DNA from: a virus
IMG/VR virus record: IMGVR_UViG_3300042453_004661
Span: 32,001 to 96,000 of that record
Direction: 5' to 3' (one strand)
Length of the DNA stretch: 64,000 bases
Shown: positions 12,244 through 32,044 of the stretch, piece by piece
Layout: each line of letters begins with the position of its first letter
How positions within the stretch are numbered: position 1 is the first letter of the stretch
The notes under the pieces: generated by a model
Databases searched by the model: none
What the model saw: only the letters and a program-made list of their open reading frames with translations
Told to the model about the DNA's origin: nothing
Position numbers and translations under genes: made by a program

Positions 12244-15200
12244 ATGGCAGATATAGTTCTAAGAAGTCTACAGCAAATTGAGGGCCGGATGATTGCCAAG
12301 CTATTGGCTGAAACCGACCTAAACGATCTATCTCCCGGGTCTGTATGGCTCACCATGATCGAGGCAGCTGCCGGGTCAGACTTTCAGACTGAAGGCAAGC
12401 TTCTTCAGTTGATGAATATCAGAAACCTTGACAAGACCACGGGGACAGACCTTGAGAAGCTGGCCCTAGAGCTTGGCGTAACGCCCAGCCGGATTGGGGC
12501 TAGTCCAGCTCGAGCCAAGGTTACTATAGGCGATTCTGCGTTTACCAAAGTTTTTTCAAATATCTACTCAGGCCTATCGAGCCCCGTCGCTGGCGATACA
12601 TCTATTGCGATTGTCGATGGATCAGGATTCTCGGCATCTGGCACTATCTACATCGCCCGTGGCTTTGCTTCTTACGAAGCCGTATCTTATATTTCTGCCG
12701 TTGACAGTGGCCCGTACTGGACCCTCACTCTATCAAGTCCTCTCGGCAAAGATCACTTGGTAGGCGAAGAGGTTGTTTTGGCCCAGGGAGGCAATCGCCT
12801 TATCCCTGCCGGGACAACAGTCAGTGCAGGATCTGGGGTCGATTTTAACACCATTGTTGACTACACGATTCTTGATGGAGAAGATTCTCTTCCTAATATT
12901 GATGTAACAGCAAGTACACCAGGAGAATCTGGCAATGTAGGCCGTAACAAGATTACGCAGTTTAGCGGATCTCCATTCTCGACGGCCACAGTCACTAACC
13001 CAGATCCCGCTAACGGCGGTAAAGAATCTGAAACCGATGCTGAACTTAGGCAACGGGTAAAAGATCATGTCCACAATCTTGGCCGTGGTACAAAGAAAGC
13101 TATTTATCGTGCCGTAATCGGCGTGTCTGATCCAGACGAAGGCAAGAGGGTTATCTCTGCATTCCTTCGTGAGCCAGCCGAGGCAGGACAGATTGGTGTA
13201 TTGTTTATCGATGACGGCACAGGATTCGCACCAACATTCTCCGGAATAGGCGAAGAAGTCCTCGTCACCTCTGCAGCTGGAACCGAGCAATTCCTTCAGC
13301 TCCAGAAATGGCCAGTCGTTAAGGCCCAGGCAGCTTCTATCTCTCTCGAGCCCTTTAAGTTGGTAGGCGGGGAGCAATTCTTGTTCGAGGTAGATGGCAC
13401 TACTGAGACCCAAACAATTCCATCTTCTTATTTCCGCTCTCCAGGTGTCGTAACTGCTCAGGAAATAGCCGAAGCTATCAATACTATCTATACAACAGTC
13501 GAGGCCCGGGCCAAAGACGGTAGGCTATTTGTTACCCCCACCGCAAGCGACCCTGACTATATCCGAGTCGGCGTTGCAACAAACGATGCAAATGCATCAG
13601 TTCGATTCCCTACCAATCGCCAATACACTATCCGCCTCTATAAGAACGATGTCCTTCTAGAGAAGTCTGGTCGTGCAGGAAGCCTTCAGTCCAAGCCTAA
13701 CAGCCAGTGGCCAGTATTTGCTAGCTCCGAAACTATCCAGCTCCAGGTAGACGGGATTGCATTCGGCATGTTGATTACTTTTACCGATGCAGACTTTGCG
13801 GCCAATACATCCTCGCTCACTATCAATGGCGCAAGTGCCAGCGATTGGGTCAAGATCTTCAATCTTAGAATCCCTGGCATCCAGGCAAAAGCTAATGACG
13901 ATGGATCTTTCACCCTCACATCAAACCTTGGGAATAACGACAAGTCCGAAGTCAAGATAATCGGTGGGTCGCTAAACGGGACCTTATTCGAGCCATTTGC
14001 AGGAACTACTGGTAAAGGATCTGACTTCAAACTCAATAGATTGCTTGGCCAGATCGAACTAGCTGAAAGGCTTGTGGAAGGCGATGAGTTAAAAGCTGGG
14101 ACAGTAAATACTCGAGCATTCTTTGACACAACAGAAAATGCCAGCTTCAATCTTCCTCTTACTCTCGGGTCTCCCGGGCGCATGGTTATCGTAGCTAATG
14201 CGACTACCGCAAGCGTTGCCGTGGCTCAGACCGGAGTCATTACTTTTACAATTCCGACCGCAGGAGTCCAGAGAATCGCTGGATCTGCAGGCCAATTCTC
14301 GTCTGTGCGTAAAGACGATTATGCATTCCTATACAATACTCCAAGGAATGCATTGCTCAAGGTTAAAGATGTCGATCCTGCTGGGGCATATGTAGACTTT
14401 TTTGATCCTGCCCCTACCGGAGGATCTGCAACTATTAACGGAGCAAGTATCCGTATTAGTTTCTTTAGGACATCTGGCATTCCACAGGTATTTGAGCTTC
14501 CAGTTGGCCCAGAAGTGACTGGGTCTGATCTAGCTACTGCATTTAATGCTCAGATTACTGGAGCAAAAGCAAGCATCACAAATGGTGGAGCCGTCAGGTT
14601 CCAGACTCTTAGGTTTTCTTCTGAAGGAGGCCTAGGTCTTCCAGTCATTGCCGGGTCTGCATTCAATCTTGGAATTGATGAAGGAAGCTTGCAGTCAAAC
14701 GATCCGCATGTCGCATCTATTGAGTCTGCAGATTTGGCCGGATATCCGACTGGTCGATTCACAATAGCAACAGCCGACAATACTTTGCCATATACCCAAC
14801 TAAACGCAAGCGGAACCCCATTCCCTGATGTCTCATTTGCCAATAGGCCAGTATTGACCTATATCGGATCGGCCCAGGCGATTATCCGTCAGCCACAAGA
14901 AAAGCTTAGCTCGAGCCAGCTATTGCTCAGAAACTATACCCCATTCCAGAATATCGGCTTAGGTGCTGACATGAGAGGCACAACCTCTGACGGTCTCGAG
15001 CTTGGCGAAAAAGACAATATCGTATTCTTGATTGACGACGATGCGACCCAAAAGACTTTTGATATCCCGATGAACCTCCAGGGTCAAGTGGCTGGCCCAT
15101 CTGTACCAAACCTTTTCCAGTTTGATGCCAATGATTCGTCTGGCGCTAATCTAGGAACTTCTAGCCGTTGGCTTGGATATGAGTTTGCAGACTATAAGCT

Positions 15201-18033: not shown

Positions 18034-18233
18034 AAGAATTTAAAAAACTACTCGATTGTCTTAACCGTCAAGTTTCTGAGCTAGAGCTATCTTGTAAAGC
18101 CAAAGATGCTAAGATAGCGGAACTTGAAAAGAAGTTGACAGAAGTCAATAAAAAAGGTATAAAAGATAAGTGGGACAAGCCACAGGAAGACCAGGCGGAG
18201 ACTGCCCACGCAAAAGCTAGCAAAAGTCAATAG
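18030..18233 (+). CDS. Small coiled-coil protein
   Basis: 67 aa; ATGA overlap with the J stop codon; heptad pattern. Confidence 0.5.
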   Translation: MKEFKKLLDCLNRQVSELELSCKAKDAKIAELEKKLTEVNKKGIKDKWDKPQEDQAETAHAKASKSQ

Positions 18234-18242
18234 AAATAGTTT

Positions 18243-19562
18243 ATGAGCAAACTACCTCCATTTTTTTCTAAGACCCAAGACCTTCAAAAAGCCGAGGATG
18301 AGACTATCAATCCTACGCTTGGCCTTGAGACTCCAAAGAAAATCATCAAGCTTAAAGAAGGACACAATAAAGGCCGTCAGGCTAAGGTAGTAGCTGAAAA
18401 CTCCCAAGAATTTAAGATCGTCCCCAGGACCAATCAAAAACCATTTAAGGTAGCTGGGGGGCCAGCCGATACTGCTGGTCAAATTCTTGATGAAGCAAAT
18501 AGTCCAATTGTATGGGAAAAGAATCGTAAACATGATATTTTGGCCCCAGGTGGGATTCACAAGAAAGAACACGAAGAAAAAGTAAAGAATATCTACCAAC
18601 CTAAAAAGGCCGAGCCTAATTTTGTATTTACAAAAGACAATCACCACCAAGGCATCCCTCATGATGAAGATCAAAAGAATCTAATTCATGGCATTGATCT
18701 TCGTGAGATTAAAAAGCTTGGCGATGCGGGAGGCGACTCAGATGACCTTGGATGGACCGCCGAGTGGGCAGCTTGTGGTGTTGGCAAGAATAAAGCCGGG
18801 AAAAGCTGTCTCGTCAAGGGTAGGATGCCGGATGAATTTCTAGATAAAAATTCTGGCATTGGTCGAGAGATGGCGTCAGATTATAAGTTATTCAGTACGG
18901 CACAGAGAGAAGCCGTTTATTACAATATAGCAAAAGCATTAGGGCTTCATAAATACATTCCTGTTACATCTGTTGTCCACGATCAAACCAAGGCCCCTGT
19001 AAAAAACTTTAAGAGGGCCCCACAGGATCATGGCCAGGCTGGCAATCATTACTCTGTCATGGAAATGATTCCAAATGCCAAGCATTACTCGGGCCTCCCC
19101 TCACAACTCGGCACAATGAAGAGAGCCCATGACAGTGGGGACCTACACAAGCTTGGCCTTATGAATGCTTTTTTGTATAATACAGATAGACATGGCAAGA
19201 ACTTCATGTTTAGTGAAAATAACAATAATTTTCACCTGATTGACCATGGCCTTACTTTTGGATATCGTGGAAGGCCATTTGTTATGCCTGCCTATCTTAG
19301 GATCGCCCATCTCGAGCATCGGCTTCCTGATGAAATACATCCGGAAGCCAGAAACTGGATCAATAATCTCAATATTGATGACATAAAAAAAGAGCTAGAC
19401 TCCCACGACATACCTATTCAGCACAAAAGAGCTACATTGGCTGCAATTCGAAAAGCAAAAGAATCGATTGGTGGAGATCCAGAGAATAAAAGAGCGTTTA
19501 GCTCACATCTAAGAGAGATAAGTAATGCAGGATTAAGATCATTCCTTAGAGGAGATGATTAA
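18243..19562 (+). CDS. PI3/PI4-kinase/HipA-like atypical kinase
   Basis: CLVKG (beta3 Lys), QREAVYY (alphaC Glu), catalytic NTDRHGKN, Mg-binding LIDHG; N-terminal DLQK|A motif. Confidence 0.75.
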   Translation: MSKLPPFFSKTQDLQKAEDETINPTLGLETPKKIIKLKEGHNKGRQAKVVAENSQEFKIVPRTNQKPFKVAGGPADTAGQILDEANSPIVWEKNRKHDILAPGGIHKKEHEEKVKNIYQPKKAEPNFVFTKDNHHQGIPHDEDQKNLIHGIDLREIKKLGDAGGDSDDLGWTAEWAACGVGKNKAGKSCLVKGRMPDEFLDKNSGIGREMASDYKLFSTAQREAVYYNIAKALGLHKYIPVTSVVHDQTKAPVKNFKRAPQDHGQAGNHYSVMEMIPNAKHYSGLPSQLGTMKRAHDSGDLHKLGLMNAFLYNTDRHGKNFMFSENNNNFHLIDHGLTFGYRGRPFVMPAYLRIAHLEHRLPDEIHPEARNWINNLNIDDIKKELDSHDIPIQHKRATLAAIRKAKESIGGDPENKRAFSSHLREISNAGLRSFLRGDD

Positions 19563-21401
19563 ATGATCAAATTAGGGTATTACAAATTTGGACATATTGA
19601 TCATGAATCTGGAGCCATGGCCGATGAAGGTATCGTGCATGTTGATGGAGAACATGTATCTGTAGTAGACGACCATGCGGGATACTTGGCGACTATTATC
19701 CCAGACGGATCTGTTGGTATGGAAGAAGGTGAGCATATTATGCGAAGCATCAATATGAATCAGTATTCCAGGTTTGTCTACATAGGCGATAAAGAAGAAG
19801 ATATTGCCGAGCATTATAATCCAGTTAATGCCAGTCCCGAACTCGAGAAGGGCATCAAGGACATGATGGCAGGAGCCATGATGGGTATTGCAGGCGCAGG
19901 CGGGATGCTGTATGCGCCTAGCGCAACAAACCAATCTGCAGTATCTAGCCCATCAGTTCCTGTTAGCCGGGCCAGCTCTGACTCTGAAATTGTTGACAAC
20001 CTTGCAAGGATCGAGTCTAGCGGTGGAAAGAATGTAGTCCACGGCATGACCGGAGACTCTGTCCATACAGATATTCAAAGAGCAGTTGGGCATACCGGAA
20101 ACCTCCCGTCTTCTGTAATTGAAGAGTCTGCAAAGAATCCGTATTTAAAAAATACCGATATCGGTCAAGGCGTTAGAAGAATTGCTGGGCTTGAGGGCTT
20201 TGCAACAGGAAACACATACAACACCAGATCCTATATTGAAAAGACTCCGGCAAAAGAAAAGTCAAAACATTACGCCAAGATCAACAAAATTACTCAGAAT
20301 CCTGAAAATGACCGAAAGATTACTGAGGCTCGAATCAAAAACCACCGAGACATATTTTCCGAACTCACCAAAGACCCGCATGAGCTAGAACTTTTGATTG
20401 CTCATGCTCATCATAATTATTACCTAAATACCAAGAAAATCTTCAGAAAGCATGGCATTAAAGGGATTATCAATCATGCCGGGGCAGAAGGTAATTATGT
20501 GAAAAAGTATGCCGAGACACTTCCTGATGGACATCCTACTAAAAACCTTTTTAATAAGCATTACAAGAAGAAATTCTTCAAGAAAAGCATTGCCGAAGAT
20601 TATGAGCTAGAGGATCTTCAAAAGTCTACCAAGCAATATAAAGAAATGCTTGGCGATGTAACCCAACACAAAGAAGCTTTTGATGTTGCAAAGAAAATGC
20701 CCAATTCAAACTGGGGAACTTGGGTCATTAGAAACTACAAGCAAAATCCAGAAAAATTTCATAGCTTAAAAGAAGAAATTGTAAATCATGCCGGACTTCA
20801 TGAGAATCTCGAATATTCTGGCGTTAGATTTGATAAAGAGCATGACTTTGATCATGGCATAGGCATGCTTAGGGATGCAAATAAGAAATTTGAAGAAAGA
20901 TTCTCTAAAGATACGCACATCATAATCCCGCAAGGTGAAAAAAAGGTCATGGATGCTGGAGATGGAATGGCTTGGTTTTCGGCTGGGAAATCATGGTGTC
21001 CCAGGGAAGCCAAAGCTATGGGCCATTGTGGGAATCAGCCTTCCGCAAGGCCTTTTCATGACTTATTTTCATTAAGAACTGTCCACAAGGTAAATGGCAA
21101 GGAATACCATGAGCCTCATGTCACTTTTATTCTTGATAAAGAAAATAACACTTTTGGAGAAATGAAGGGCCGGACAAACAAAAAACCAACTAAGCAATAT
21201 CATAATGCAATTGCCCAATTGTTGGCTAGGGGATATGTTCCGTTTGGTGGAGTCCATGCCCCAGACCAAGATTTTCATATTGACGATTTGAGTCCGGAAT
21301 TGAAGAAATTTGTTGCCGAAAAAAATATACGAGCCTTTATCAACTCTTCTGATCCAGAGTTGTCAGCAAAAGCTCTAGAGGCATCTATGGGGCGTTCTTA
21401 A
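19563..21401 (+). CDS. Polyvalent protein: lysozyme/SLT-like domain + PcfJ-like domain
   Basis: ELEK|G linker, hydrophobic stretch, LARIESSGGKN (SLT-like ES motif); linker FFKK|S..DLQK|S; then EAKAMGHCG...FSLR...PHVTF...EMKGRTNKKP, which is PcfJ-like. Confidence 0.55.
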   Translation: MIKLGYYKFGHIDHESGAMADEGIVHVDGEHVSVVDDHAGYLATIIPDGSVGMEEGEHIMRSINMNQYSRFVYIGDKEEDIAEHYNPVNASPELEKGIKDMMAGAMMGIAGAGGMLYAPSATNQSAVSSPSVPVSRASSDSEIVDNLARIESSGGKNVVHGMTGDSVHTDIQRAVGHTGNLPSSVIEESAKNPYLKNTDIGQGVRRIAGLEGFATGNTYNTRSYIEKTPAKEKSKHYAKINKITQNPENDRKITEARIKNHRDIFSELTKDPHELELLIAHAHHNYYLNTKKIFRKHGIKGIINHAGAEGNYVKKYAETLPDGHPTKNLFNKHYKKKFFKKSIAEDYELEDLQKSTKQYKEMLGDVTQHKEAFDVAKKMPNSNWGTWVIRNYKQNPEKFHSLKEEIVNHAGLHENLEYSGVRFDKEHDFDHGIGMLRDANKKFEERFSKDTHIIIPQGEKKVMDAGDGMAWFSAGKSWCPREAKAMGHCGNQPSARPFHDLFSLRTVHKVNGKEYHEPHVTFILDKENNTFGEMKGRTNKKPTKQYHNAIAQLLARGYVPFGGVHAPDQDFHIDDLSPELKKFVAEKNIRAFINSSDPELSAKALEASMGRS

Positions 21402-21425
21402 TATTAGATTGGTAATATAAGGTGT

Positions 21426-24400
21426 ATGGCTATCCCGCCCAAAAAAATCTATACCCAGATGCAAAAGTCTGATTCAGATGGCCAGGCTCCTATCTCTTTT
21501 AATTTTAAAAGCCTTAAGCCGGAGCAGAAAGCAAAATTCCTTCAAAATCCTAATCTTCATCCAGATATACTTCATAAGTTAAGTGAGGATGATAATTTAA
21601 AGTTGTCAATAGCAGAGAATCCTAATACTCGCTCAGACACACTTCATAGGCTAAGCGATAGTGAGTATGGGATTGTAAGGGGTGCAGTAGCAGAGCATCC
21701 AAATACCCACCCAGACACGCTTCATAAGTTAAGTGAAGATAGGGATGATGATGTGAGGAGGATGGTAGCAGAGAATCCCAATGCCCATCCGGATACAATT
21801 CATAAGCTGAGTGGGGATAAGAATTCGCGTGTAAGGGAGGCAGTAGCAAAGCATCCTAACACCCATCCAGATATACTTCATAAGTTAAGTGGGGATAATT
21901 CTTTTATTGTAAAAGGAGCAGTAGCGAGAAATCCTAATGCCCATCCAGACACGCTTCGTAAGTTGAGTGAAGATGAGGGGGATTGGTCTGTAAGGGAGGC
22001 GGTAGCAAAGCATCCTAATATTCATCCGGACACGCTTCATAGGCTAAGTGAGAGTGAGTATGAGACTGTAAGGGAGGCAGTAGCAAGGAATCCAAATGCC
22101 CACCCAGATATACTTCATAAGTTGTGGAAAGACAAGTGGCCAAGAGTAAGATCTGCAGTAGCAGAGCATCCTAATACCCGCTCAGATATACTTTTTGGAT
22201 TATGTTACGATAGGGATTTTGAAGTAAGGGCTGGGGCAGCAAGAAATCCAAATATTCGTCCAGCTCTACTTGATAAGTTAAGTAGGGATACTCATTGGCC
22301 TGTAAGACAGGCAGCAGCAGAGCATCCTAATAACCATCCGGATATGCTTGATAAGTTAAGTAGGGATGTGGAGTGGGATGTAAGAGAAGCAGCCCGTAAA
22401 AACCCTAACCATCCAAATAACCAGATGAAAAAGTCTGATTCAGATAGCCAGACCCCTATCTCTTTTAATTTTGCAAACCTTAAGCCGGAGCAGAAAGCAA
22501 AATTCCTTCAAAACCCCAATGTTCATCCTAATGCGCTTCATGCTTTAAGCGGGGATGAGAATCATGAAGTAAGATTTGCAGTAGCAAAGCATCCTAATGC
22601 CCATCCAGATACACTTCATGGACTAAGTGAAAGAGAAGATGAGAATGAAAGTATAAGGCAGGCAGTAGCAAAACATCCAAATACCCATCCAGACACGCTT
22701 CATAAATTGAGTAAGGATGACGATTTAAAGCGGTTTGTGGCAATTCACCCAAATACCCATCCAGACACGCTTAATAGGTTAAGTAAAGACAAGTGGTCAG
22801 GAGTAAGAAGGGAGGTAGCAAGGAATCCAAATGCCCATCCAGATCTACTTCATAAGCTGAGCGAGGACAGGGATGTGTATGTAAGGGAAGGGGCAGCAAG
22901 GAATCCAAATGCCCATCCAGATCTACTTCATAAGTTAAGCGGGGATGAGAATCATGAAGTAAGATTTGCAGTAGCAAAGCATCCTAATGCCCATCCAGAT
23001 ACACTCCATAAGTTGAGTGGGGATAGCTTCGACTACAGCATAAGGGAGGCGGTAGCAATTCATCCCAATACCCATCCAGACATACTTCATAATTTAAGCG
23101 AGGATGAACATCTTTATGTAAGAGATGCAGTAGCAAAGAATCCAAATACCCGTCCAGATACTCTTCATAAATTGAGCGGGGATGAGGATGTAGATATAAG
23201 ACAGATAGTGGCCAGGAGTGCTAATGCTGGTCCAGAAACACTTCATAAGCTGAGTGGGGATAGGTCTTTTATTGTAAAAATGGAAGTGGCAAGGAATCCT
23301 AATACTCACCCAGATACACTTCATAAGCTGAATGGGGATGAGTCTTTTACTATAAGAGAGGCGGCCCGTAAAAACCCTAACCATCCAAATAACCAGATGA
23401 AAAAGTCTGATTCAGATAGCCAGACCCCTATCTCTTTTAATTTTGCAAGCCTTAAGCCGGAGCAGAAAATAAAATTCCTTCGAAACCCCAATGTTCGGCT
23501 TGATCTACTTCAGCAGTTAAGTGAGGATGAGGATGGAGATGTAAGGCAGGCAGTAGCGAAACATCCTAATACCCATCTAGATATAATTCATAAGTTGAGT
23601 GGGGATGAGCATAGCGGTACAAGGGCTATAGTAGCAAGGAATCCCAATATCCGTCCAAATATACTTCATGCATTAAGTCACGATAGGGATTTTGAAGTAA
23701 TGGCTGGGGCAGCAAGGAATCCAAATGCACATCCAGAAATACTTCAGAGGTTGAGTGAACATGAACATCCGTATGTAAGAATAGCGGTAGCAGAGAATCC
23801 TAATACCCATCCAGATATACTTCATAAGCTTAGTCAGGATGCGTATCAGCCTGTAAGAATGGCGGTAGCAAACCATAAAAATACCCACCCAGATATACTT
23901 AATGTGCTGAGTGATGATAAGGACGAGCTTATAAGAGAGGGGGTAGCAAAGAATCGCAATACCCATCCAGATACAATTCATAAGCTGAGTGGCGATAAGG
24001 ATGAGGATGTAAGATATGCGGTAGCAAGGAATCCAAATGCCCACCCAGATATACTTCATAGGCTGAGTCAAGACGATAATAGGTATGTAAGACAGGCGGT
24101 AGCACGACATCCCAGCACCCATCCAGACACGCTTCATAAATTAAGTGGGGATGAATTTTCTAGCGTAAGACAGGGATTGGCAATGAATCCTAATACTCAT
24201 CCGGATATGCTCAATAAGTTGGGCGGGGACAGAGATGGAGATGTAAGAGAAGCAGTAGCAAAACATCCAAATACCCATCCAGACACGCTTCGTAGGTTAG
24301 GTGGAGATTTAGATGTAGATGTAAGATATGCAGCCCTTCAACATCCTAACCATCCAAATAACCAGATGAAAAAGTCCGGTTCTACTCAGTTTGAAGACCC

Positions 24401-26762
24401 ATGGGACCAGGCTAAATACGATAGGGAAGAAGAGCAGTCTCTTGATAAAGCAGAATTCCTCACCGATGAAGATATTGCTTCAGATGACAAGGCTGATGGC
24501 ATTTATTTAATACCCCATAGCCATGAAAAAGATAGGATTGCTTCTTCAAGCAAATTTCATGGCACAGAGCTTAAGAGCGCATCAACACTATACAGGCATT
24601 ACAAGCATACTCCCCACCATCCTGTATCTCTTGGTCTCAAGTATTTGATTCATAGAATAGAAAATGCAAAAGACTATGACGAGGGGAATGCAGAAGAGCT
24701 AGATAATGATTTCTTGCAATTACATCAAGCGGGTAAGGCTTCAGAGAAAAACGGGTGGGTTAAATCTAGAGATTTGCAAGAATTTTATGAGAATCATGGC
24801 AAAAGACTAATTCCCCAGCTTATTGGTCACAAAAATAAGCTAGCAGAAGTCATCATGAAGCATCATCCGGAGTCAGTTGTCTATATTGATGGAAAACCGC
24901 ATGTAGCATTGACCAGGGGTCTAAATACTAAGATGCCAACCCAAGACCATGCATTGGCTAGCTATGCAGATAAAGACAATACTGGATTTGGCAGTCATAT
25001 GCATCATAGGTTTGTACCTCTTGATAATCTTTGGTATTCATATGCGTACGGCCCATACCCAGCTACAAGCCCAAGTTTTGGAAACGAACACGAATATCTT
25101 GTTTCTCCCCATAAGATCGTACCAGCAAAAAAAGAAGATATTAAAGAGATAGCCGGGAATAGAACTCTGTCACATGGATATATGCCTAATCTGGAAAGTG
25201 ACATAATAAATAACAAATTGTCTTTGGAAGATTTGCGTAAGGTTCATCCAGCATTGCTAGGAAGGGTCGTAATGAATTCTCTGGGCAATCGAGACCAGGA
25301 AACTCATGAGAAAGTTATTGATCATGTTTTGGACAAATTAGATCAACAAATTAAGTCTCCCAACATGAATAGCGACCTGGTCGGTTCCTTGCTCAATTCT
25401 TTGAAAAATGGCACTCTCAATACCTCAAAAGACATGACACATAGGGTTATACAAAAGATATCTGAAATTAACCATCGAGATCATGGGCATGTCTTGGCAA
25501 ATGATGCAACTTCCAAAATGAATGAAATAATAAGTAGGGAAGCGGGCGGCCTTCACGAAAAGACCTACAGAACTGCATTCGATCATGCGAAGTCGGCTTT
25601 TACATTAGAGGCTCAGAATTTAATGTTTGGCCTTGCTCAAAATCCATTCAGTCCTCAAGATGTGCTTCATGAATTATCCAATAGCGAAGTGCCTGGCATG
25701 AAAGAAAAAGTGGCAAGCAATTCAAATACTCATTCCGACACGCTCCATATCCTGTCTAATTTAGAAGACAATAGAGTTAAGCTTGCTGTTGCAGATAATC
25801 GATCTACTCACCCCAATACACTTCATGATATGGTAAAAAAGACAAAAACTCCAAAATCAATACACGGAACTTTGCCTCTTCCGGAAGATCATGATAATCT
25901 TAAGTTGCATAAAGTAATTGCTACCAATCCAAATACAATGGATGAAACTCATCATTTATTGATGGATAAATACCCATACTCAAGCCTTCCCGCACAAGCG
26001 ACTGATATCGGCATGCGTATTGCTTCTAATCCAAATATTTCAGATTCAATGATGAATAAGTTAAGCGTGAGTAGTTCGCCTGGAGTAAGGCGGAATATTG
26101 CCAGTAACTTAAAAACTAATGCAGATCTACTCCATAAACTAAGTGAAGATAATGATGATCATGTTAAATTCGCAGTAGCAAGCAATGAGAATACCCGCTC
26201 AGACACACTTCATAAACTAAGTGAAGATAGATATAATTTTGTAAGAACTGCAGTAGCAGAGCATCCCAATACCCATCCAGATACTCTTCATGCGATGAGT
26301 GAAGATCCAGTTGATGGAGTAAGGCGATCAGTAGCGGGAAGGTTAAATACTCGTCAAGATACGCTTCATAAAATGAGTGAGGATAAGTGGGCAGGAGTAA
26401 GGCAAGAGGTAGCAAGGAATCGCAATGCCCATCCAGACACACTTCATAAATTGAGCAATGATGAATATCTTGGCGTAAGAGAAGTGTTAGCAAGAAATCC
26501 AAGTATCCGCCAGGACACGCTTCATGTTTTAAGTAAGGATAAGGAAGATATGATAAGGCGGTCGGTAGCAAATCATCCTAATACCCATCCAGATACACTT
26601 CATGAGCTTAGTCAGGATTATAATGAGTTTGTAAGGGGGTCGGTGGCAAAAAATCCAAATACTCACCCAGACCTACTGGATAAGCTAAGTAAAGATGAAA
26701 GTCATGATGTAAGATGGGCAGTAGTAAATAATCCTAACTATAAGCCTAAGAATATGGGATAA
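21426..26762 (+). CDS. LRV/HEAT-repeat polyprotein with an internal ADP-ribosyltransferase-like domain
   Basis: Three units of 12 x ~26-aa repeats (VRxAVAxNPNTHPDTLHKLSxD) separated by QMxK|S linkers; then LTRG...LASY...NEHEYLV (R-S-ExE); then further C-terminal repeats. Confidence 0.8.
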   Translation: MAIPPKKIYTQMQKSDSDGQAPISFNFKSLKPEQKAKFLQNPNLHPDILHKLSEDDNLKLSIAENPNTRSDTLHRLSDSEYGIVRGAVAEHPNTHPDTLHKLSEDRDDDVRRMVAENPNAHPDTIHKLSGDKNSRVREAVAKHPNTHPDILHKLSGDNSFIVKGAVARNPNAHPDTLRKLSEDEGDWSVREAVAKHPNIHPDTLHRLSESEYETVREAVARNPNAHPDILHKLWKDKWPRVRSAVAEHPNTRSDILFGLCYDRDFEVRAGAARNPNIRPALLDKLSRDTHWPVRQAAAEHPNNHPDMLDKLSRDVEWDVREAARKNPNHPNNQMKKSDSDSQTPISFNFANLKPEQKAKFLQNPNVHPNALHALSGDENHEVRFAVAKHPNAHPDTLHGLSEREDENESIRQAVAKHPNTHPDTLHKLSKDDDLKRFVAIHPNTHPDTLNRLSKDKWSGVRREVARNPNAHPDLLHKLSEDRDVYVREGAARNPNAHPDLLHKLSGDENHEVRFAVAKHPNAHPDTLHKLSGDSFDYSIREAVAIHPNTHPDILHNLSEDEHLYVRDAVAKNPNTRPDTLHKLSGDEDVDIRQIVARSANAGPETLHKLSGDRSFIVKMEVARNPNTHPDTLHKLNGDESFTIREAARKNPNHPNNQMKKSDSDSQTPISFNFASLKPEQKIKFLRNPNVRLDLLQQLSEDEDGDVRQAVAKHPNTHLDIIHKLSGDEHSGTRAIVARNPNIRPNILHALSHDRDFEVMAGAARNPNAHPEILQRLSEHEHPYVRIAVAENPNTHPDILHKLSQDAYQPVRMAVANHKNTHPDILNVLSDDKDELIREGVAKNRNTHPDTIHKLSGDKDEDVRYAVARNPNAHPDILHRLSQDDNRYVRQAVARHPSTHPDTLHKLSGDEFSSVRQGLAMNPNTHPDMLNKLGGDRDGDVREAVAKHPNTHPDTLRRLGGDLDVDVRYAALQHPNHPNNQMKKSGSTQFEDPWDQAKYDREEEQSLDKAEFLTDEDIASDDKADGIYLIPHSHEKDRIASSSKFHGTELKSASTLYRHYKHTPHHPVSLGLKYLIHRIENAKDYDEGNAEELDNDFLQLHQAGKASEKNGWVKSRDLQEFYENHGKRLIPQLIGHKNKLAEVIMKHHPESVVYIDGKPHVALTRGLNTKMPTQDHALASYADKDNTGFGSHMHHRFVPLDNLWYSYAYGPYPATSPSFGNEHEYLVSPHKIVPAKKEDIKEIAGNRTLSHGYMPNLESDIINNKLSLEDLRKVHPALLGRVVMNSLGNRDQETHEKVIDHVLDKLDQQIKSPNMNSDLVGSLLNSLKNGTLNTSKDMTHRVIQKISEINHRDHGHVLANDATSKMNEIISREAGGLHEKTYRTAFDHAKSAFTLEAQNLMFGLAQNPFSPQDVLHELSNSEVPGMKEKVASNSNTHSDTLHILSNLEDNRVKLAVADNRSTHPNTLHDMVKKTKTPKSIHGTLPLPEDHDNLKLHKVIATNPNTMDETHHLLMDKYPYSSLPAQATDIGMRIASNPNISDSMMNKLSVSSSPGVRRNIASNLKTNADLLHKLSEDNDDHVKFAVASNENTRSDTLHKLSEDRYNFVRTAVAEHPNTHPDTLHAMSEDPVDGVRRSVAGRLNTRQDTLHKMSEDKWAGVRQEVARNRNAHPDTLHKLSNDEYLGVREVLARNPSIRQDTLHVLSKDKEDMIRRSVANHPNTHPDTLHELSQDYNEFVRGSVAKNPNTHPDLLDKLSKDESHDVRWAVVNNPNYKPKNMG
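21456..24362 (+). repeat. Three tandem ~970-bp units (966, 972, 969 bp), each built from 78-bp repeats
   Basis: The CAGATG(C/A)AAAAGTC linker starts at 21456, 22422, 23394 and 24363. About 84 bp is identical between ~22392-22475 and ~23364-23447. Confidence 0.85.
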
Positions 26763-26780
26763 TTGCATTTACCCCCGTAA

Positions 26781-26790
26781 GGGTATAATG
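26781..26790 (+). promoter_or_regulatory. Putative late-promoter motif GGGTATAATG
   Basis: Intergenic GGTATAAT. A TTGCAT lies upstream but with only a 15-bp spacer. Confidence 0.4.
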
Positions 26791-26819
26791 TTCTTGTCGG
26801 CACAAAATCAATAACCCAT

Positions 26820-29800
26820 ATGTCAAAATCCCATAAAAAACAAGATGTTAAGAATGCAAGCTCGGGAAATCCTAGTTCTGGTATGCCAGAAAAGGTCCCA
26901 GGCGGTCTCTCGTCCGGCAAAAGCCCCAAGGATTTTGATCAACAGAAGCTAGCTGACGGTATCAAGGTCGAAATGGAGCATACGACAGATAAGGACATAG
27001 CTCAAGAGATTGCTATGGACCATCTGAGCGAAGATCCTGACTACTACAAGAAGCTCAAGGCTATTGAGGCAAAAAAGTCCGAACCACTTTCAAAGCCATA
27101 CGCTTCCGAGGCTCAGCGTCGATGGGCTCATACCCCGGCTGGCAAAGAAGCCCTGGGTGGAGAAAAAGCTGTAGCTCATTGGAATAAGGAGTCAAAAGGT
27201 AAGAAATTGCCAGAGCGGGTAGAGAAGTCCGAGACCGCACCATCCGAAGCTCCTTCACAAGAAGATCTATCTCAGCAATATGAAAAGCTATTGCATAATC
27301 ATTATCCAAAAGACTTTGTCGATACCGTAATCCGTGGAGACAAAGCATCTGCCCAATTTCTGGGAGGTCCGATATCTCATGAAAAGCATGGCAATTTGAT
27401 TGTCCGATACGCCGAAGGCCCGAAGAGTCTTGGCATTATGGGGCTATTTTCTGCTACTGGTCGTATCCGCCCATCGGAAGCAGAAGGCATTAAGAGCTGG
27501 CTTGGCCGAGCAAGATCGTCGTTAGATCAGGGCAAAGATGTTTATGTCAGCTTAAATCATCATTCTGAGCCTATTTTTATGAGGGCTCTCAAGGGTGGCG
27601 ATTTTGACTCAGAAACATTGTCTTCTCACGATTTTCCCTGGGGTACTTGGAAAACAGTAAAAGTTAGTAAGAAAAACATGGCTAAATCTGAAGACTTTGA
27701 AAAAGGAGCTAAGGGCGATTGGCAAAAGGAAGGCTACACAATCCACTATACCACCCCCAAAACAAGGCGAGCTTTTGCAACAAAAATTGGCTCACCACTT
27801 GTGGAAGATGGGGCAGTAAATGGCGATCACACTATTTGGGCTGTAAGCCCATCTGGAAAGAAGGTTGGGCATTTAGATATCGATAACCACCAAGATAATA
27901 GCATGTTTGCTCTTGAGACAGAAGTTGATGAAGATCATCAGAGAAAAGGCCTAGCCTCGGCCATGTACCGATTGGCAGAAGAAAAAACGGGAAGAAAATT
28001 CTCACCAAGCCCTCATCAAACAGATGAAGGTGCAGCTATCTGGAACCAGCCTAACCGCCCATTTGGTAAATCTGAAGATTTTGAAAAGGCGAGAGAGCCA
28101 GAGCCGGACTTTGATGTTGGGGCTGTATCAACGAGTAGCGATACCGAAAAAAAGCCCAAAGCTTCTGAATTAAATATCACGGTCAAAGGCAAGCCTGTTG
28201 CTCCTAATCTAGACATCAAAAATGCCGTTAAGTCTGAATTTGATCACAAAAACGGAATACTCCATACACCCAGAGGAAGCTTTCAGTTAAGGTTTCCAGA
28301 AAAAGGTGACAAGAAATATAAGAAGATTTTGAATTCCCCAGAAATTCAAGAAGTCCATAGAAGAGCTATGAAGAATTGGTTTAGGCTCAACGAAGTAGTT
28401 AGAAATGGCGGGCATCTTCCTGACGAGGTTGTGGCTCATGCAAATTTATTTTCTATCTTGTCTGCCAATACACCAGTTCCACAAACTGAACTTCTTTACT
28501 CAAGATTAAAAGATGTAATGGGACAACAAGGGCTTGATCCTAGAACAAAGAAATTTGGAGAAGCATTTTTGCCTGGCGGTGAAGGCCGGGAAGGCTGGAG
28601 AGCATCCGATAGCCCAACAGAAATGCCAGAACACTCGAGGGAATACTGGGAAGGAAGAGCAAAACCCACTATCACACAAATGAGGGCCAGTAAAGGAACT
28701 GGAAGGCAGGCCGGAGATATTGTTAAGCTCGGGTCTCTTGATGCATTTAGTGACAGGATTCAAAAATACCCACAGGCCCATAGATATATTGCAGATCTAG
28801 TTGCTCAGCATGGTGGGGATACCCAAAAGATCGTATCCCAGATGATGGCCGATAGATCAAATGGAAAACTCCCCGATGATCATCCAATGCAAATTGGCGT
28901 AGGCCTTGGATCTAAGACTTCACGATTTGCCGTATCAATGATGGGCGGAGGCCAATCTGTTGTCCCTGATACCCATTTTGTAAGGCACATATTTGGACTT
29001 GATTCAAATACGGATTCAGATACAATCCACTATCTCAAGAATGTTTTGTGGAAATACAAAAATCATCATATTTTGAACTCATTGGATCAATTTTACAGAG
29101 AAAATCATCCTGCCGTAGATTTTGTCAAGAATGCATACTTTGGCGGTAAGGATGATCCTCATTCGGTATTTCCGGCATTCTGGCTACACTGGCTAGGCAT
29201 TTCTCCGCACGAAAGAGAACAAGGGATTGGCAAGCCAGAAGGGGCCAAAAACATTAGCGATCATACTCCTTACTTCGACACCGCAAACGAGATCCTTGAT
29301 AGGCATGGGCTTGGAAATATTATTACCAAGTCCGAAGACGAGGAAAGACCACTGGTTCATAGAACTGCAAGTGCAGTTCATGAAATTGCCGAGAAGCTCG
29401 GAACATCTTTTGCTTCTATGATTTACTACTCCCATATCGTTCCTAAGCTTTTGGGAGAAACAACAGAAGATCATCATACGCATGCGATAGATGTAAATAA
29501 AGCCAAAAAAGTTCTTAAGCTTGCTAAGAGCCTGCTTATGGAAAAAATTGGTCAAATGACTCACAATACCCAGCCACTCTCTGTTGGGCATGATGTTTTT
29601 CAAAAAGAACTAGAATCTATCATGGGCGGATTCTCTGTTGACAACGGAGGACTTAGGTCAATGAATGACAAGAAAAAGTCTGAAGATCGTTCAAATTCAT
29701 TGAGTCAAGTTCCCAAAAAACACAGAAAGAAATTTGAAAAAGCGATGGACGAGGCCAAAAAGAAAGACAGCGTGTATGGCAGGCTCGTAATGCTTAAGTC

Positions 29801-29822
29801 CAAGATTAAGGATAAAAAGTAA
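26820..29822 (+). CDS. Polyvalent protein: DUF5661-like + small modules + GNAT acetyltransferase + HhH DNA-glycosylase-like domain
   Basis: GIKVEMEHT...IAMDHLSEDPDYYKKL; PYASEAQRRWAH mini-module; GNAT motif A VDEDHQRKGLASAMY...QTDEGAAIW; HhH-like GLGSKTSRF...VVPDTHFVRH. Domains are separated by K|S linkers. Confidence 0.7.
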   Translation: MSKSHKKQDVKNASSGNPSSGMPEKVPGGLSSGKSPKDFDQQKLADGIKVEMEHTTDKDIAQEIAMDHLSEDPDYYKKLKAIEAKKSEPLSKPYASEAQRRWAHTPAGKEALGGEKAVAHWNKESKGKKLPERVEKSETAPSEAPSQEDLSQQYEKLLHNHYPKDFVDTVIRGDKASAQFLGGPISHEKHGNLIVRYAEGPKSLGIMGLFSATGRIRPSEAEGIKSWLGRARSSLDQGKDVYVSLNHHSEPIFMRALKGGDFDSETLSSHDFPWGTWKTVKVSKKNMAKSEDFEKGAKGDWQKEGYTIHYTTPKTRRAFATKIGSPLVEDGAVNGDHTIWAVSPSGKKVGHLDIDNHQDNSMFALETEVDEDHQRKGLASAMYRLAEEKTGRKFSPSPHQTDEGAAIWNQPNRPFGKSEDFEKAREPEPDFDVGAVSTSSDTEKKPKASELNITVKGKPVAPNLDIKNAVKSEFDHKNGILHTPRGSFQLRFPEKGDKKYKKILNSPEIQEVHRRAMKNWFRLNEVVRNGGHLPDEVVAHANLFSILSANTPVPQTELLYSRLKDVMGQQGLDPRTKKFGEAFLPGGEGREGWRASDSPTEMPEHSREYWEGRAKPTITQMRASKGTGRQAGDIVKLGSLDAFSDRIQKYPQAHRYIADLVAQHGGDTQKIVSQMMADRSNGKLPDDHPMQIGVGLGSKTSRFAVSMMGGGQSVVPDTHFVRHIFGLDSNTDSDTIHYLKNVLWKYKNHHILNSLDQFYRENHPAVDFVKNAYFGGKDDPHSVFPAFWLHWLGISPHEREQGIGKPEGAKNISDHTPYFDTANEILDRHGLGNIITKSEDEERPLVHRTASAVHEIAEKLGTSFASMIYYSHIVPKLLGETTEDHHTHAIDVNKAKKVLKLAKSLLMEKIGQMTHNTQPLSVGHDVFQKELESIMGGFSVDNGGLRSMNDKKKSEDRSNSLSQVPKKHRKKFEKAMDEAKKKDSVYGRLVMLKSKIKDKK
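27683..28087 (+). repeat. 21-bp direct repeats (20/21 identical) encoding KSEDFEK, flanking the GNAT module
   Basis: taaatctgaagactttgaaaa (27683-27703) and taaatctgaagattttgaaaa (28067-28087). Confidence 0.8.
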
Positions 29823-29824
29823 AT

Positions 29825-32044
29825 ATGCCAGTAATCACGGTTGCATCAGTAACGCCAGCCACGATAACAGTTCCAGCTACTTCTCCATTTGCTGTAGGGC
29901 CAGATGCTATTGTGATTAAAGATCAATTCATGACTTACGAGTCGTATAATTCAGCCACTGGCTTATTTGTTGGCGTAGTGCCAAATCCAATTAGCCTTGG
30001 CGTAACTGTTGGCGATGTGATTGAGCAGGCTACCCAGGAGCAAAAAAGAGTCAATTCAGCCTATGAAAGACTGCTATCAAAGTTTCCTAAGAGATACCAA
30101 GTCAAGGGCACAAAGTATCTAAAAGCTTTATTGCAGGCATTGGCTAAGGGCGACGGGTTTATCGATTATGAGGTTGAGGCCGTCAGGGATAATCTTCTTG
30201 TGATGTCAGCAATCGGTAAATATCTAGATCGATTGGCTGGGCAATACGGCGTAGTCCGTGGCCAAGGTAGTGGCGTTCAAGATCCTGACTTCAGAAAGCT
30301 TGTTCCATTGGTCGGGATGAGCCCAAAGCAGATCACAAATATCCTAAATAAAGTTATCGATGTTGTATATGGTCCTTTTGCTTCTCATGCAAATGTTACC
30401 TGTTCTTTACCGGAGCCATACAATTTTCAAAACGGATGGAGCTTGCTACTTGTCGTTGACGGCAGAGAGACCCAGGTTAAGTTTCAGTCTTCAGACTTTG
30501 CTTCTATATCAAATGCATCTGCCGAAGAAGTCGCCAATATCATTACCCAAAGAACAGATGGAAAAGTTACGGGCCAAGTTATTACGAATGTAAGGACTGG
30601 GGAAAAGTTTGTCAACATCAGGACATCAACGGTAGGCGCCCAGGGCTTTATCCGGGTGTTGGGTGGGGAATGCCAAAGCAAGATGAGGTTTCCAATAATT
30701 CGCCCCACCATCATGAGTAGTGCGGTATGGAATGTCGTCCGGGTTGGTGGAACAGACGAAGTCGAATTCCAGCTAGTTTCTGGTCTTTCTCCTGCCATGA
30801 AAAATGCTGGTGTTCAAGCTGGAGACTATGTCACGATCAGGCCTGATTCCGGATTCAATGTTGCAAACGCAGGAAGCTTTGAAGTAACCTACGCCGACAA
30901 CAATGTATTCAGAGTCAAAAACCCTACCGGAGTTCCAGAGTCTGGGATCACGAATGTAAATATGGATGATTTTACATTCTTCCAGTCTAGAACAGCCAAT
31001 ATTCTCCTTTCAAGCAGGCCTGCCACAGTTATCGAGACTGCTCCGAATGAGCTAACTGTTATCTTGCCAGTGACTTCGCCTCTCGTTAAAAGGACGCTGA
31101 AGGGATCTCACCATTTGCGTGGCGGTCTAACAAATTGCATCTCAGTCACATCCAATACTGTTGAGCTTGGATCTTCTGCAGAGTTTCCTGCAGACGGAGG
31201 TTGCGTCCAGCCTACATCTTCCAGGAATACGGCAAGAGGTATTGTTTCAGCAAAAACATCTACCACGATTAGCCTTATTTCAGCAGAAGGGTGGCCGACC
31301 CGTGGCGCTGTGTGGTCCCAGGTAACTGGTGATTTTTATTACTATTCTGGAATATCTGGCAACACACTTACTGGCGTATCTCCATCTCCGCCTAACTCAA
31401 TCATCAGCGGAGAGTGCAAGTATTCGGAAAGATATTCTTTTACAGCGATTTCAGGCAACACTTTGACAGGCGTCTATCCTGATCCTGTTAATCTACTTAA
31501 TAGAGAGGTAACACAAGGATCGTCCCAGCTCGTAGATGAATACGAGGGATCTTTCTTGTATGATCTTTCTGCTCCTTTTATCGGCGCCTCAGAAAACACA
31601 ACAATATCAGAACAAATTGATCAGGGATCTGCCAGGACCGTAATCCAGGTAGGAAATGTATCTGACTTCCCGGACAAAGGATATATTGTGTTCCGCTTTG
31701 GTGAAGACGGGCAAGAAGGCCCGGTTCGGTATCAGGCAAAAGTAGGAACAGAAGCTTTAGTTATTGACCCTGGTCATGTGTTCAAAAATACACACCGATC
31801 TGGGGCAGGAATAAGACTCGTAAGGAAAATCGGGTCATACATACCTAGAGCAACGGGAGATGATCTAGCTGTCTATCTGACATCTACATCCCCTGCTAGG
31901 GATCTAATCGCAAATTACCTAAGAAGCATCGCTGCATCCGGAGTAAAAGTAAAGTTTGAAATTAGAATTCCTGACCAAAAATGGGAAGTATTGCCTAATC
32001 TATACACGACCATTCCGCTCGACAATAGCCTAGTTCCACCCTAA
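29825..32044 (+). CDS. Baseplate wedge protein (gpI-like partner of J, putative)
   Basis: SAIGKYLDRLAGQYGVVR...DPDFRKL N-terminal motif and C-terminal LRSIAASGVKVKF, typical of the wedge gene that follows J. Confidence 0.65.
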   Translation: MPVITVASVTPATITVPATSPFAVGPDAIVIKDQFMTYESYNSATGLFVGVVPNPISLGVTVGDVIEQATQEQKRVNSAYERLLSKFPKRYQVKGTKYLKALLQALAKGDGFIDYEVEAVRDNLLVMSAIGKYLDRLAGQYGVVRGQGSGVQDPDFRKLVPLVGMSPKQITNILNKVIDVVYGPFASHANVTCSLPEPYNFQNGWSLLLVVDGRETQVKFQSSDFASISNASAEEVANIITQRTDGKVTGQVITNVRTGEKFVNIRTSTVGAQGFIRVLGGECQSKMRFPIIRPTIMSSAVWNVVRVGGTDEVEFQLVSGLSPAMKNAGVQAGDYVTIRPDSGFNVANAGSFEVTYADNNVFRVKNPTGVPESGITNVNMDDFTFFQSRTANILLSSRPATVIETAPNELTVILPVTSPLVKRTLKGSHHLRGGLTNCISVTSNTVELGSSAEFPADGGCVQPTSSRNTARGIVSAKTSTTISLISAEGWPTRGAVWSQVTGDFYYYSGISGNTLTGVSPSPPNSIISGECKYSERYSFTAISGNTLTGVYPDPVNLLNREVTQGSSQLVDEYEGSFLYDLSAPFIGASENTTISEQIDQGSARTVIQVGNVSDFPDKGYIVFRFGEDGQEGPVRYQAKVGTEALVIDPGHVFKNTHRSGAGIRLVRKIGSYIPRATGDDLAVYLTSTSPARDLIANYLRSIAASGVKVKFEIRIPDQKWEVLPNLYTTIPLDNSLVPP

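Follow-up and report, generated by a model that had tools for sequence, protein, structure and literature searches.

A 64,000-nucleotide window of a viral contig (bases 32001-96000 of IMG/VR record IMGVR_UViG_3300042453_004661, which is linear, 124,585 bases long, and 75% complete by estimate) carries four tightly packed plus-strand open reading frames (ORFs), here called genes 1 to 4, that encode proteins of 439, 612, 1778, and 1000 residues. Each protein appears to be a chain of modules, and the module borders carry a short joint built around a lysine. The same joint occurs in the head proteins of related phages. The original prediction drew attention to these four large genes; they lie where it placed them, and every motif string that it listed is present in the translations.

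The locus

The phage is contractile-tailed: the contig carries genes for the sheath, baseplate hub, wedge, and baseplate J proteins. A terminase gene lies at the far end, and the contig stops inside the gene that follows it. The closest named relative is Myxococcus phage Mx1 (34% identity in the sheath), with the SPO1-like phages next at about 25%.

Two baseplate-region genes flank the block. (Coordinates are those of the window, and all features of the block and its flanks are on the plus strand.) Upstream lies a baseplate J-like protein of 1929 residues (12244-18033; Baseplate_J, 4.3e-19; phrog_6, 2.3e-41), which shares 30% identity with its J-like counterpart in Mx1. On the downstream side is a 739-residue protein (29825-32044), whose Mx1 homologue is called a 'kelch repeat protein'. 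The original prediction had placed the block between baseplate J and its wedge partner: the J assignment is confirmed, whereas the downstream protein matches no family, though its Mx1 homologue does follow J. Indeed, the Mx1 homologues of the two flanking genes are directly adjacent (130032-135683 for the J gene, then 135962-138625), so genes 1 to 4 form an 11.6-kb insertion relative to Mx1.

The block has a G+C content of 0.41-0.43, compared with about 0.47 in the flanks, and its coding strand is more A-rich. A megablast search of the 11.6-kb block against phages found no match; scans of viral contigs using the gene 4 or the gene 1 protein alone found no relative; and PHROGs searches with the four proteins and ten upstream ORFs returned almost nothing. 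Promoter and terminator sites in 17800-30100 were rarer than in shuffled sequence.

Modules and joints in the four proteins

Gene 4 (26820-29822; 1000 residues) shows the arrangement most fully. A DUF5661 domain (residues 24-86, approximately) is followed by a 50-residue module (87-136), an unassigned module (137-289), a GNAT domain (296-417), an HhH-GPD glycosylase-like domain (424-837) with helices extending to residue 878, and a basic tail (904-1000). BLAST against relatives recovers homology blocks at 24-83, 87-136, 137-289, 290-419, 424/453-878, and 892-979, and the block edges fall on the proposed cut sites. In an AlphaFold model (28-row alignment; mean predicted local distance difference test score, pLDDT, 63.9), 8 of the 10 proposed sites lie in segments with pLDDT below 50. 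Such segments span 368 of the 1000 residues (binomial P 0.007, weakening to 0.069 when paired sites are counted once).

The individual joints, with a downward arrow marking the proposed cut, are as follows: A-K-K86↓S-E, between DUF5661 and the 50-residue module (27069-27083; low-pLDDT segment 79-95); V-E-K136↓S-E (27219-27233; segment 126-145); the tandem pair M-A-K289↓S-E-D-F-E-K295↓G, just before the GNAT domain (27678-27710; segment 289-298); and the tandem pair F-G-K417↓S-E-D-F-E-K423↓A, at the border between the GNAT and glycosylase-like domains (28062-28094; segment 408-442). A further match, I-T-K837↓S-E (29322-29336), lies in a loop of the glycosylase-like domain at pLDDT of about 61. 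Lys837 is invariant in 7 of 7 aligned homologues; its equivalent is K-S-E or K-A-E in most Mx1-like proteins, and K-N-D in Mx1.

The GNAT domain scores above the Pfam threshold (Acetyltransf_1, 22.0 bits; cut-off 20.7), and many GNAT chains match its fold over residues 298-417 (Z 7-8.6). A Foldseek search of the Protein Data Bank (PDB) with the whole 1000-residue model gave weak GNAT rows only. The large domain is supported by its fold as HhH-GPD DNA-glycosylase-like. Over residues 488-814 the best VIA-align match is 3n0u_A, an 8-oxoguanine DNA glycosylase (Z 11.9; root mean square deviation, rmsd, 3.8; 207 of 209 residues), although for helical folds a Z below 13 can reflect a common arrangement; EndoIII-3 (8.7), Mag1 (8.7), DUF2419 (8.4), OGG (7.6 and 7.5), and NTHL1 (7.3) follow. 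Pfam, NCBIfam, and PDB sequence searches found no match for this domain. Its candidate active site (28896-28979) consists of a helix-hairpin-helix with Lys699 and, 18 residues on, the sequence P-D717-T-H-F; residues K699, P716, D717, T718, H719, and F720 are invariant in 7 of 7 aligned homologues. The Lys699-Asp717 arrangement is reminiscent of K120 and D138 of endonuclease III. The basic tail (here residues 892-979; 29493-29819) matches, at 69% identity, the C-terminus of P0013, a polyprotein that otherwise differs from gene 4; it could be a terminal module common to both that serves in packaging or DNA binding.

Gene 3 (21426-26762; 1778 residues) begins with a 14-residue peptide, followed by three LRV/HEAT cassettes (15-336, 337-660, and 661-983), a 25-residue spacer, and a central domain (about 1051-1244) that is joined to a fourth LRV block. 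The proposed sites are K14, K336, K660, K983, and K1008. Pfam identifies the repeats (LRV, E 9.4e-152; LRV_2, E 3.5e-87). The first cassette junction, Q-M-K-K336↓S-D (22425-22439), recurs at 23397-23411 (K660) and 24366-24380 (K983). The cassettes are 55-59% identical overall, compared with 83-100% in a 37-residue stretch at the junction, and the three junctions are nearly identical in DNA. In the central domain, the Arg of T-R-G, the Ser of L-A-S, and the Glu of E-x-E are each at least 90% conserved across 25 aligned homologues, a pattern that makes the domain a candidate ADP-ribosyltransferase (ART). None of the 25 homologues matches an ART family in Pfam; PDB sequence searches with the single protein and with the alignment gave no relevant match, nor did the ESM Atlas give a usable one.

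Gene 2 (19563-21401; 612 residues) contains three modules (1-96, 97-341, and 355-612) with proposed sites at K96↓G, K341↓S, and K354↓S. BLAST against relatives in which these modules have other neighbours defines homology blocks (2-87, 93-196, and 339-581) whose edges coincide with the sites. Directly after L-E-K↓G comes a hydrophobic Gly/Ala/Met-rich stretch of about 20 residues (19851-19940), whose position is kept in relatives P0009-P0011; cleavage could expose this stretch as a membrane-inserting N-terminus. The middle module shares its initial hydrophobic helix and an I-E-S-S-G-G motif with the same three relatives. The paired site F-K-K341↓S ... D-L-Q-K354↓S (20577-20630) precedes the C-terminal module, which is rich in Cys and His and whose opening, D-L-Q-K-S-T-K-Q-Y, recurs in P0057. 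Gene 2 has no family in Pfam, NCBIfam, or PHROGs, and PDB sequence searches found nothing relevant. Modules of this Cys/His type are very often fused directly to LRV/HEAT repeats (P0060-P0082); here the module is encoded just before the LRV gene.

Gene 1 (18243-19562; 439 residues) opens with a 16-residue peptide ending in L-Q-K↓A (K16), after which comes a module homologous to the C-terminal part of an Mx1 protease polyprotein. It is plausibly a PI3K/PI4K- or HipA-like kinase: both Pfam scores are below threshold (PI3_PI4_kinase, E 9.3e-6, 26.2 bits with a cut-off of 27.1; HipA_C, 24.2 with a cut-off of 30.5), and the sequence carries DRHGKN (315) and IDHG (333). The short N-terminal peptides of genes 1 and 3 are comparable, in form, to the cleaved targeting peptides of T4 internal proteins.

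How do these assignments compare with the labels originally proposed? The GNAT and repeat-solenoid labels hold. The kinase label has the expected motifs and a Pfam score just short of the cut-off; the DNA-glycosylase label has the fold match to recommend it, though no sequence family; and the ART label retains its conserved residues, again with no family behind it. The muramidase-like and PcfJ-like labels for gene 2 found no support in Pfam, NCBIfam, or the ESM Atlas: the middle module (97-341) gave a weak structural match to an SLT cluster (TM-score only 0.33/0.48), its SLT-like I-E-S-S-G-G motif being the one feature in favour of the label, and residues 355-612 have no Pfam or NCBIfam match at E of 1 or below and listed homologues without a PcfJ annotation. 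When ten modules were cut out of the four proteins and searched separately in Pfam and NCBIfam, GNAT was the only match.

Directional enrichment of the joint

The joint was counted in two forms: a loose motif, [LIVMFA]-x-K-[SAG], and a strict motif, [LIVMFA]-x-K-[SA]-[ED], with shuffled sequences and, for the strict form, the reversed pattern as controls. The loose motif occurs 15 times in the 1000-residue protein, compared with 7.2 in shuffles (P=0.003). The strict motif occurs 11 times in the four proteins and once in reverse; 1000 shuffles average 2.0, reach at most 7, and never attain 11 (0/1000). The other 113 ORFs of the contig, tail and baseplate genes included, show no excess (15 forward, 20 reversed, 14.1 expected), and the difference in site density is significant by Fisher's test (11 sites in 3829 residues versus 15 in 35416; P=1.4e-5). 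Because the strict motif was defined after inspection of the four proteins, independent protein sets must carry the weight.

The original prediction described tandem pairs of sites around an acidic spacer. K-S-E-D-F-E-K-G or -A is found twice, as claimed, but the proposed PLSK↓P site does not fit the rule. Codon usage at the joints is informative. The two tandem pairs of gene 4 differ from each other by two synonymous changes, and between genes the joint serine is encoded by TCT, TCC, or AGC and the lysine by AAA or AAG. Such variation suggests that selection has acted on the peptide and not on the nucleotide sequence.

Relatives: modules shuffled, joint kept

A protein search with gene 4 returned 50 proteins, including the query and a near-identical copy. 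Near-identical proteins are encoded on other contigs: P0055 on one of 113,691 bases and P0005 on one of 14,592 bases. Many of these relatives pair DUF5661 (for which no mention was found in the literature) with NUDIX, GNAT, kinase, ParB-like, ART-PolyVal, or portal domains. In P0041, DUF5661 is fused to a portal, with three motif sites ahead of it; it also occurs inside a DUF2213 head protein. The six nearest relatives (P0006-P0011), 54-61% identical over the large domain, contain the same modules in other orders, separated by joints such as K-S-E-D-L-Q-K-G. In a nearer metagenomic relative, L021, the P0010-type cargo gene occupies a different place in the virion region from that of the block in the window.

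These independent sets show the same asymmetry. The strict motif occurs 22 times forward and twice reversed in P0006-P0011 (4.7 expected); 91 and 25 times, respectively, in 42 more distant DUF5661-type proteins (26.1 expected); and 149 and 42 times in 106 homologues of the gene 3 central domain (53.9 expected). Among 55 K-[SA]-[ED] sites in the nearest lineage, P3 is Leu, Ile, Met, Val, or Phe in 42, P1' is Ser in 43, and P2' is Glu in 45. The loose motif follows 18 of 35 DUF5661 copies, as against 18.7% of random 28-residue windows (P=1.3e-5). The DUF5661 copy of Vibrio phage VPs20, a phage with a different type of head protein, is without the joint; this fits a lineage-specific code, as a single case.

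A probable link to head maturation

Residues 450-878 of gene 4 are 33% identical (E 1e-66) to part of a 1239-residue Mx1 protein, WNM70322.1, named 'putative prohead protease', and gene 1 is 26% identical (E 9e-16) to the C-terminal part of this same protein. Its gene is positioned between the portal and capsid genes of Mx1. Relatives of the domain were located at 14 IMG/VR loci, and a protein of the same architecture (1137-1639 residues) could be called at 10, which served for the polyprotein counts (the ORF table of L009 equals that of L008, and ORF calling picked out no intact plus-strand polyprotein in L013, L017, and L020). The gene order at these loci is terminase, portal, the 1137-1639-residue protein, nucleotide cyclase, scaffold-like protein, and capsid protein. 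The protease polyprotein of L021 (1231 residues) also carries the motif.

These fusions bear on the possibility that genes 1 to 4 encode tail or baseplate proteins: either cargo of the tube lumen, as in contractile injection systems, or surface binders, with the LRV solenoids serving in receptor binding or decoration. Position suggests as much, since the genes are tightly packed on one strand between baseplate J and its usual neighbour, and the equivalent gene of L021 adjoins a homologue of a PHROGs 'tail fiber protein'. Yet the homologous modules are fused to the prohead protease or the portal and not to tail proteins, and the tail and baseplate genes of the contig share in the lack of motif excess. 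Moreover, Iyer et al. (PMC5512222), in their main text, place T4-type alt genes, whose product is packaged in the head, beside baseplate genes as well. A tail location thus seems improbable.

The N-terminal 170 residues of the relatives' polyproteins constitute the protease domain, and all 11 sequences compared keep its H48 and S130. A model of this domain (mean pLDDT 62.6) matches the T4 protease gp21 (5jbl_A; Z 8.3, rmsd 3.6, 121 aligned residues), 28 herpesvirus assemblin rows (Z 5.2-7.9), and 93 BFVD models at E of 1e-3 or below, many of them named prohead protease. Sequence searches found no Pfam, NCBIfam, or PDB profile match. On this modelling, the domain is identified as a predicted assemblin-fold prohead serine protease with conserved His and Ser.

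A profile search found the domain in 638 longer proteins. Among the best 120 of these, 100 contain the glycosylase-like domain, 68 the kinase, and 9 neither; the strict motif occurs 193 times forward and 56 times reversed (66.3 expected). (Many of the fusions also carry GGDEF, and Mx1-like phages hold a nucleotide cyclase beside or fused to the protease polyprotein.)

The head proteins themselves carry the joint. In Mx1-like capsid proteins, an opening stretch of 10-14 residues ends in L-x-K↓A-L-E-A-G (3 of 3 IMG/VR proteins, and Mx1). The segment K↓A-L-E-A-G also follows the protease domain in 50 of the best 120 fusions by a strict pattern, always with K↓A. More broadly, a copy of the first 20-30 residues of the mature capsid protein follows the protease domain in Mx1, L007-L019, L021 (712-4404), SPO1, and Brochothrix phage A9, and begins at the same K↓A or K↓S site as in the capsid protein. 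This copy may dock the protease and its cargo onto the shell. All six Mx1-like portals examined have a K↓S-E site near the C-terminus, and the scaffold-like proteins have 5-6 sites each (27 forward, 1 reversed, 2.9 expected).

The pattern extends beyond the Mx1 group. SPO1 gp6.1 and the Mx1-like capsid protein can be aligned along the whole of the latter (27% identity). In SPO1 the capsid carries N-K23↓A-L-E-A-G and the protease D-K169↓S-L-E-A-G, and the scaffold contains 11 hydrophobic-x-K↓S sites in 244 residues. In A9 the capsid site is S-K23↓S, and the same residues follow K162 of its protease. The SPO1 and A9 portals and proteases also carry hydrophobic-x-K↓S or -K↓A sites at matching places. 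As annotated, the head operons of both phages show protease, scaffold, and capsid genes, and no cargo polyprotein.

It is conceivable that the K-S-E joints always stay intact, whether as flexible, helix-capping spacers or as recombination joints that facilitate the swapping of modules between proteins that act at full length, in the manner of the N4 virion RNA polymerase. Every relative does keep the joint yet arranges its modules differently, the DNA of the three cassette junctions in gene 3 hardly varies, and Iyer et al. (PMC5512222) describe, in their main text, polyvalent proteins delivered unprocessed. On the other hand, the codons at the remaining junctions differ, as expected of selection on the peptide. 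A linker would hardly account for the motif at capsid N-termini and its 11 occurrences in the SPO1 scaffold, and the forward-to-reverse asymmetry (11:1, 27:1, and 193:56) argues for a peptide that is read out in one direction. This explanation is unlikely.

Somewhat less likely still is cleavage by a different enzyme: the zinc metallopeptidase of a partner polyprotein, a phage subtilase, or a host protease acting after injection. Embedded metallopeptidases are the processing enzymes favoured in the main text of Iyer et al. (PMC5512222); relatives P0008, P0009, P0010, and P0054 contain HExxH; and the contig encodes a Peptidase_S8 protein (L003:5854-6573, E 6e-23). However, none of the four proteins of the block contains HExxH, and so with no embedded peptidase a trans-acting protease would be needed. 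The motif is common to capsid, scaffold, and portal proteins, including those of SPO1 and A9 with their annotated protease-scaffold-capsid operons, and Mx1-like phages have the cargo in one chain with the assemblin-fold protease.

A model for cargo processing

Together, these observations suggest that genes 1 to 4 encode head-packaged polyvalent cargo that is cut apart by the prohead protease, a reading to which we assign a probability of roughly 65% on the sequence comparisons described above. The four products would be late-expressed polyvalent cargo proteins built of swappable modules, with module borders bearing the site recognized by the capsid-maturation protease, of assemblin fold, that the SPO1/Mx1 group uses. 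The rule would call for a hydrophobic P3 residue, Lys as P1, Ser or Ala (in some cases Gly) as P1', and an acidic P2' residue (Glu or Asp); paired sites would release acidic spacers of 6-25 residues. The precursors would co-assemble into the prohead, where the protease would cut them alongside the scaffold, portal, and capsid proteins to yield roughly 12-15 polypeptides as well as the short acidic spacers. Once released, the polypeptides would exit the capsid together with the DNA and exert their effects on the host. (We infer packaging, cleavage, ejection, and every enzymatic activity.) The original prediction of capsid-packaged polyproteins is thereby supported in part, through the head-protein motif and the protease and portal fusions of relatives. 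Its claim that the motif marks domain boundaries survives in sharpened form: the strict motif is enriched and sits on homology-block edges and in low-pLDDT linkers.

Several results weigh against this model. The loose motif is not above shuffle level in the proteins of genes 1 to 3 (5 versus 2.8, 4 versus 4.1, and 7 versus 6.6). Two strict matches in gene 4 are poorly placed: K837 lies inside a domain, which makes cutting there doubtful, and K471 lies in a strand that is confidently folded in the model and is probably a chance match. Among the 106 homologues of the gene 3 central domain, 38 hold no site. The strict motif has no excess in the 110 homologues of the gene 2 C-terminal module (31 forward, 51 reversed, 33.4 expected), which are mostly proteins of about 600 residues on large contigs, and from this it follows that the joint belongs to a lineage of phage polyproteins and not to every homologue. 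The HExxH motifs of P0008, P0009, P0010, and P0054 could belong to zinc peptidases. Genes 1 to 4 sit in the baseplate cluster, away from the head cluster. The contig has no match to the protease profile (alignment A2) or to the HK97-type capsid family PF05065, and a portal gene is likewise absent; these absences show only that the record is incomplete. Neither the four proteins nor any other part of the contig contains a segment like the capsid N-arm, which in relatives follows the protease domain. In the published announcement of the Mx1 genome, the terms protease, capsid, and proteom do not appear.

A broader version of the model, in which the capsid-maturation protease of the SPO1/Mx1 group doubles as a polyprotein processor, seems to us about an even bet. 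Hydrophobic-x-K↓S/A-E would be a 'load and cut here' code for any module, whether fused to the protease, fused to the portal, or encoded anywhere among the late genes. The resulting injected arsenal would comprise an HhH-GPD glycosylase or lyase, a kinase, a candidate ADP-ribosyltransferase, an acetyltransferase, and diversifying LRV binders. One element of the contig concerns the glycosylase: a homologue of beta-glucosyl-HMC-alpha-glucosyltransferase (L004:4967-5830 of the contig; phrog_842, 1.3e-51). This hints at modified phage DNA, which would be relevant if a DNA glycosylase is injected. Because the contig holds this glucosyltransferase-like gene, the target of an injected glycosylase may be the unmodified DNA of the host, with base modification protecting the phage genome.

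Polyvalent proteins are widespread, and how they are loaded into virions and how their domains are separated are unsettled matters. The joint ties such cargo to a testable protease rule, from which exact cleavage positions and the resulting products can be predicted for some dozen cargo proteins, and the cultivable phage Mx1, with two of the same modules fused to its protease, offers a tractable model. If the rule is correct, the joint could flag capsid cargo in metagenomic phages from sequence alone, and could help to define the enzymes that these phages inject at the start of infection.

Other features of the contig

Four further observations concern genes outside the block. The subtilase gene mentioned above lies upstream of the window in the virion region and overlaps the start of a calcineurin-like phosphoesterase gene; the pair spans L003:5854-7315 (genome 5854-7318). 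A 266-residue ORF (L003:8652-9449) has two strict sites, K85 and K100, at a position matching that of the 1693-residue cargo polyprotein of L021. The contig also encodes a stand-alone mCpol, or Cas10-palm-like, cyclase (L003:11732-12916, E 1.7e-13). In the window, a tail-fibre-like protein (35393-38707) twice carries Y-F-S/T-K-S-E-F-I-N-S (residues 67 and 132); this repeat fits the strict motif, probably by chance.

Comparison with known systems

The prohead proteases of T4 and phiKZ recognize Glu at P1, and they process internal head proteins. The motif class described here differs in having Lys at P1, and the phage belongs with SPO1 and Mx1 rather than with T4 or phiKZ. The capsid proteins of HK97 and of A511 are reported to be cut between Lys and Ser. 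In the SPO1-like phages (Herelleviridae), the hydrophobic-x-K↓S/A sites in the capsid, scaffold, portal, and protease of SPO1 and A9 match. Unlike Mx1, in which the modules of WNM70322.1 are fused to the protease within the head operon, the present phage has its modules in separate genes, together with other modules, in a baseplate operon.

Phage SPN3US provides a case of a shared cleavage signal: as set out in PMC10052503, its internal, ejected head proteins, its portal, its capsid protein, and the protease itself are all cut at one short motif. Of the 14 mapped sites, 13 remove N-terminal propeptides, and a propeptide can be cut several times. The parts of that account considered here describe no cutting of multi-enzyme chains, which is what sets the present proposal apart.

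Polyvalent proteins, as treated in the main text of Iyer et al. 2017 (PMC5512222), are the other point of reference. Two hallmarks are seen here: two to fifteen unrelated effector-type domains in a chain (gene 4 has DUF5661, GNAT, and HhH-GPD-like domains plus three unassigned modules; gene 3 has LRV repeats and the central domain), and a location among virion or late genes (a contig with sheath, baseplate J, and terminase). The kinase, GNAT, candidate ART, and nucleic-acid enzymes, combined in single chains with predicted packaging and delivery alongside the DNA, likewise resemble the proteins of that survey. There, polyvalent proteins are compared with the polyproteins of RNA viruses, with release by peptidases, chiefly embedded zinc metallopeptidases; assemblin-like peptidases are rare and always C-terminal. 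Here, by contrast, the chains contain no embedded peptidase and carry a defined joint that matches head-protein sites, and the assemblin-fold protease of relatives is N-terminal. The main text of that survey shows no junction motif, and the word 'linker' does not occur in it, though its FTP supplements may list related architectures. Nor was a description of cut-site joints in polyvalent proteins found in the accessible literature on prohead proteases, polyproteins, and ejection proteins.

Thus polyvalent proteins are already known, as is the processing of internal head proteins by a prohead protease, which is well established for SPN3US. What differs here is a defined joint, specific in orientation, that lies at module borders and is the same as the sites in head proteins of the SPO1/Mx1 group; the proposed processing, in trans, of chains that lack a peptidase of their own; and a very large family of cargo proteins headed by an N-terminal protease.

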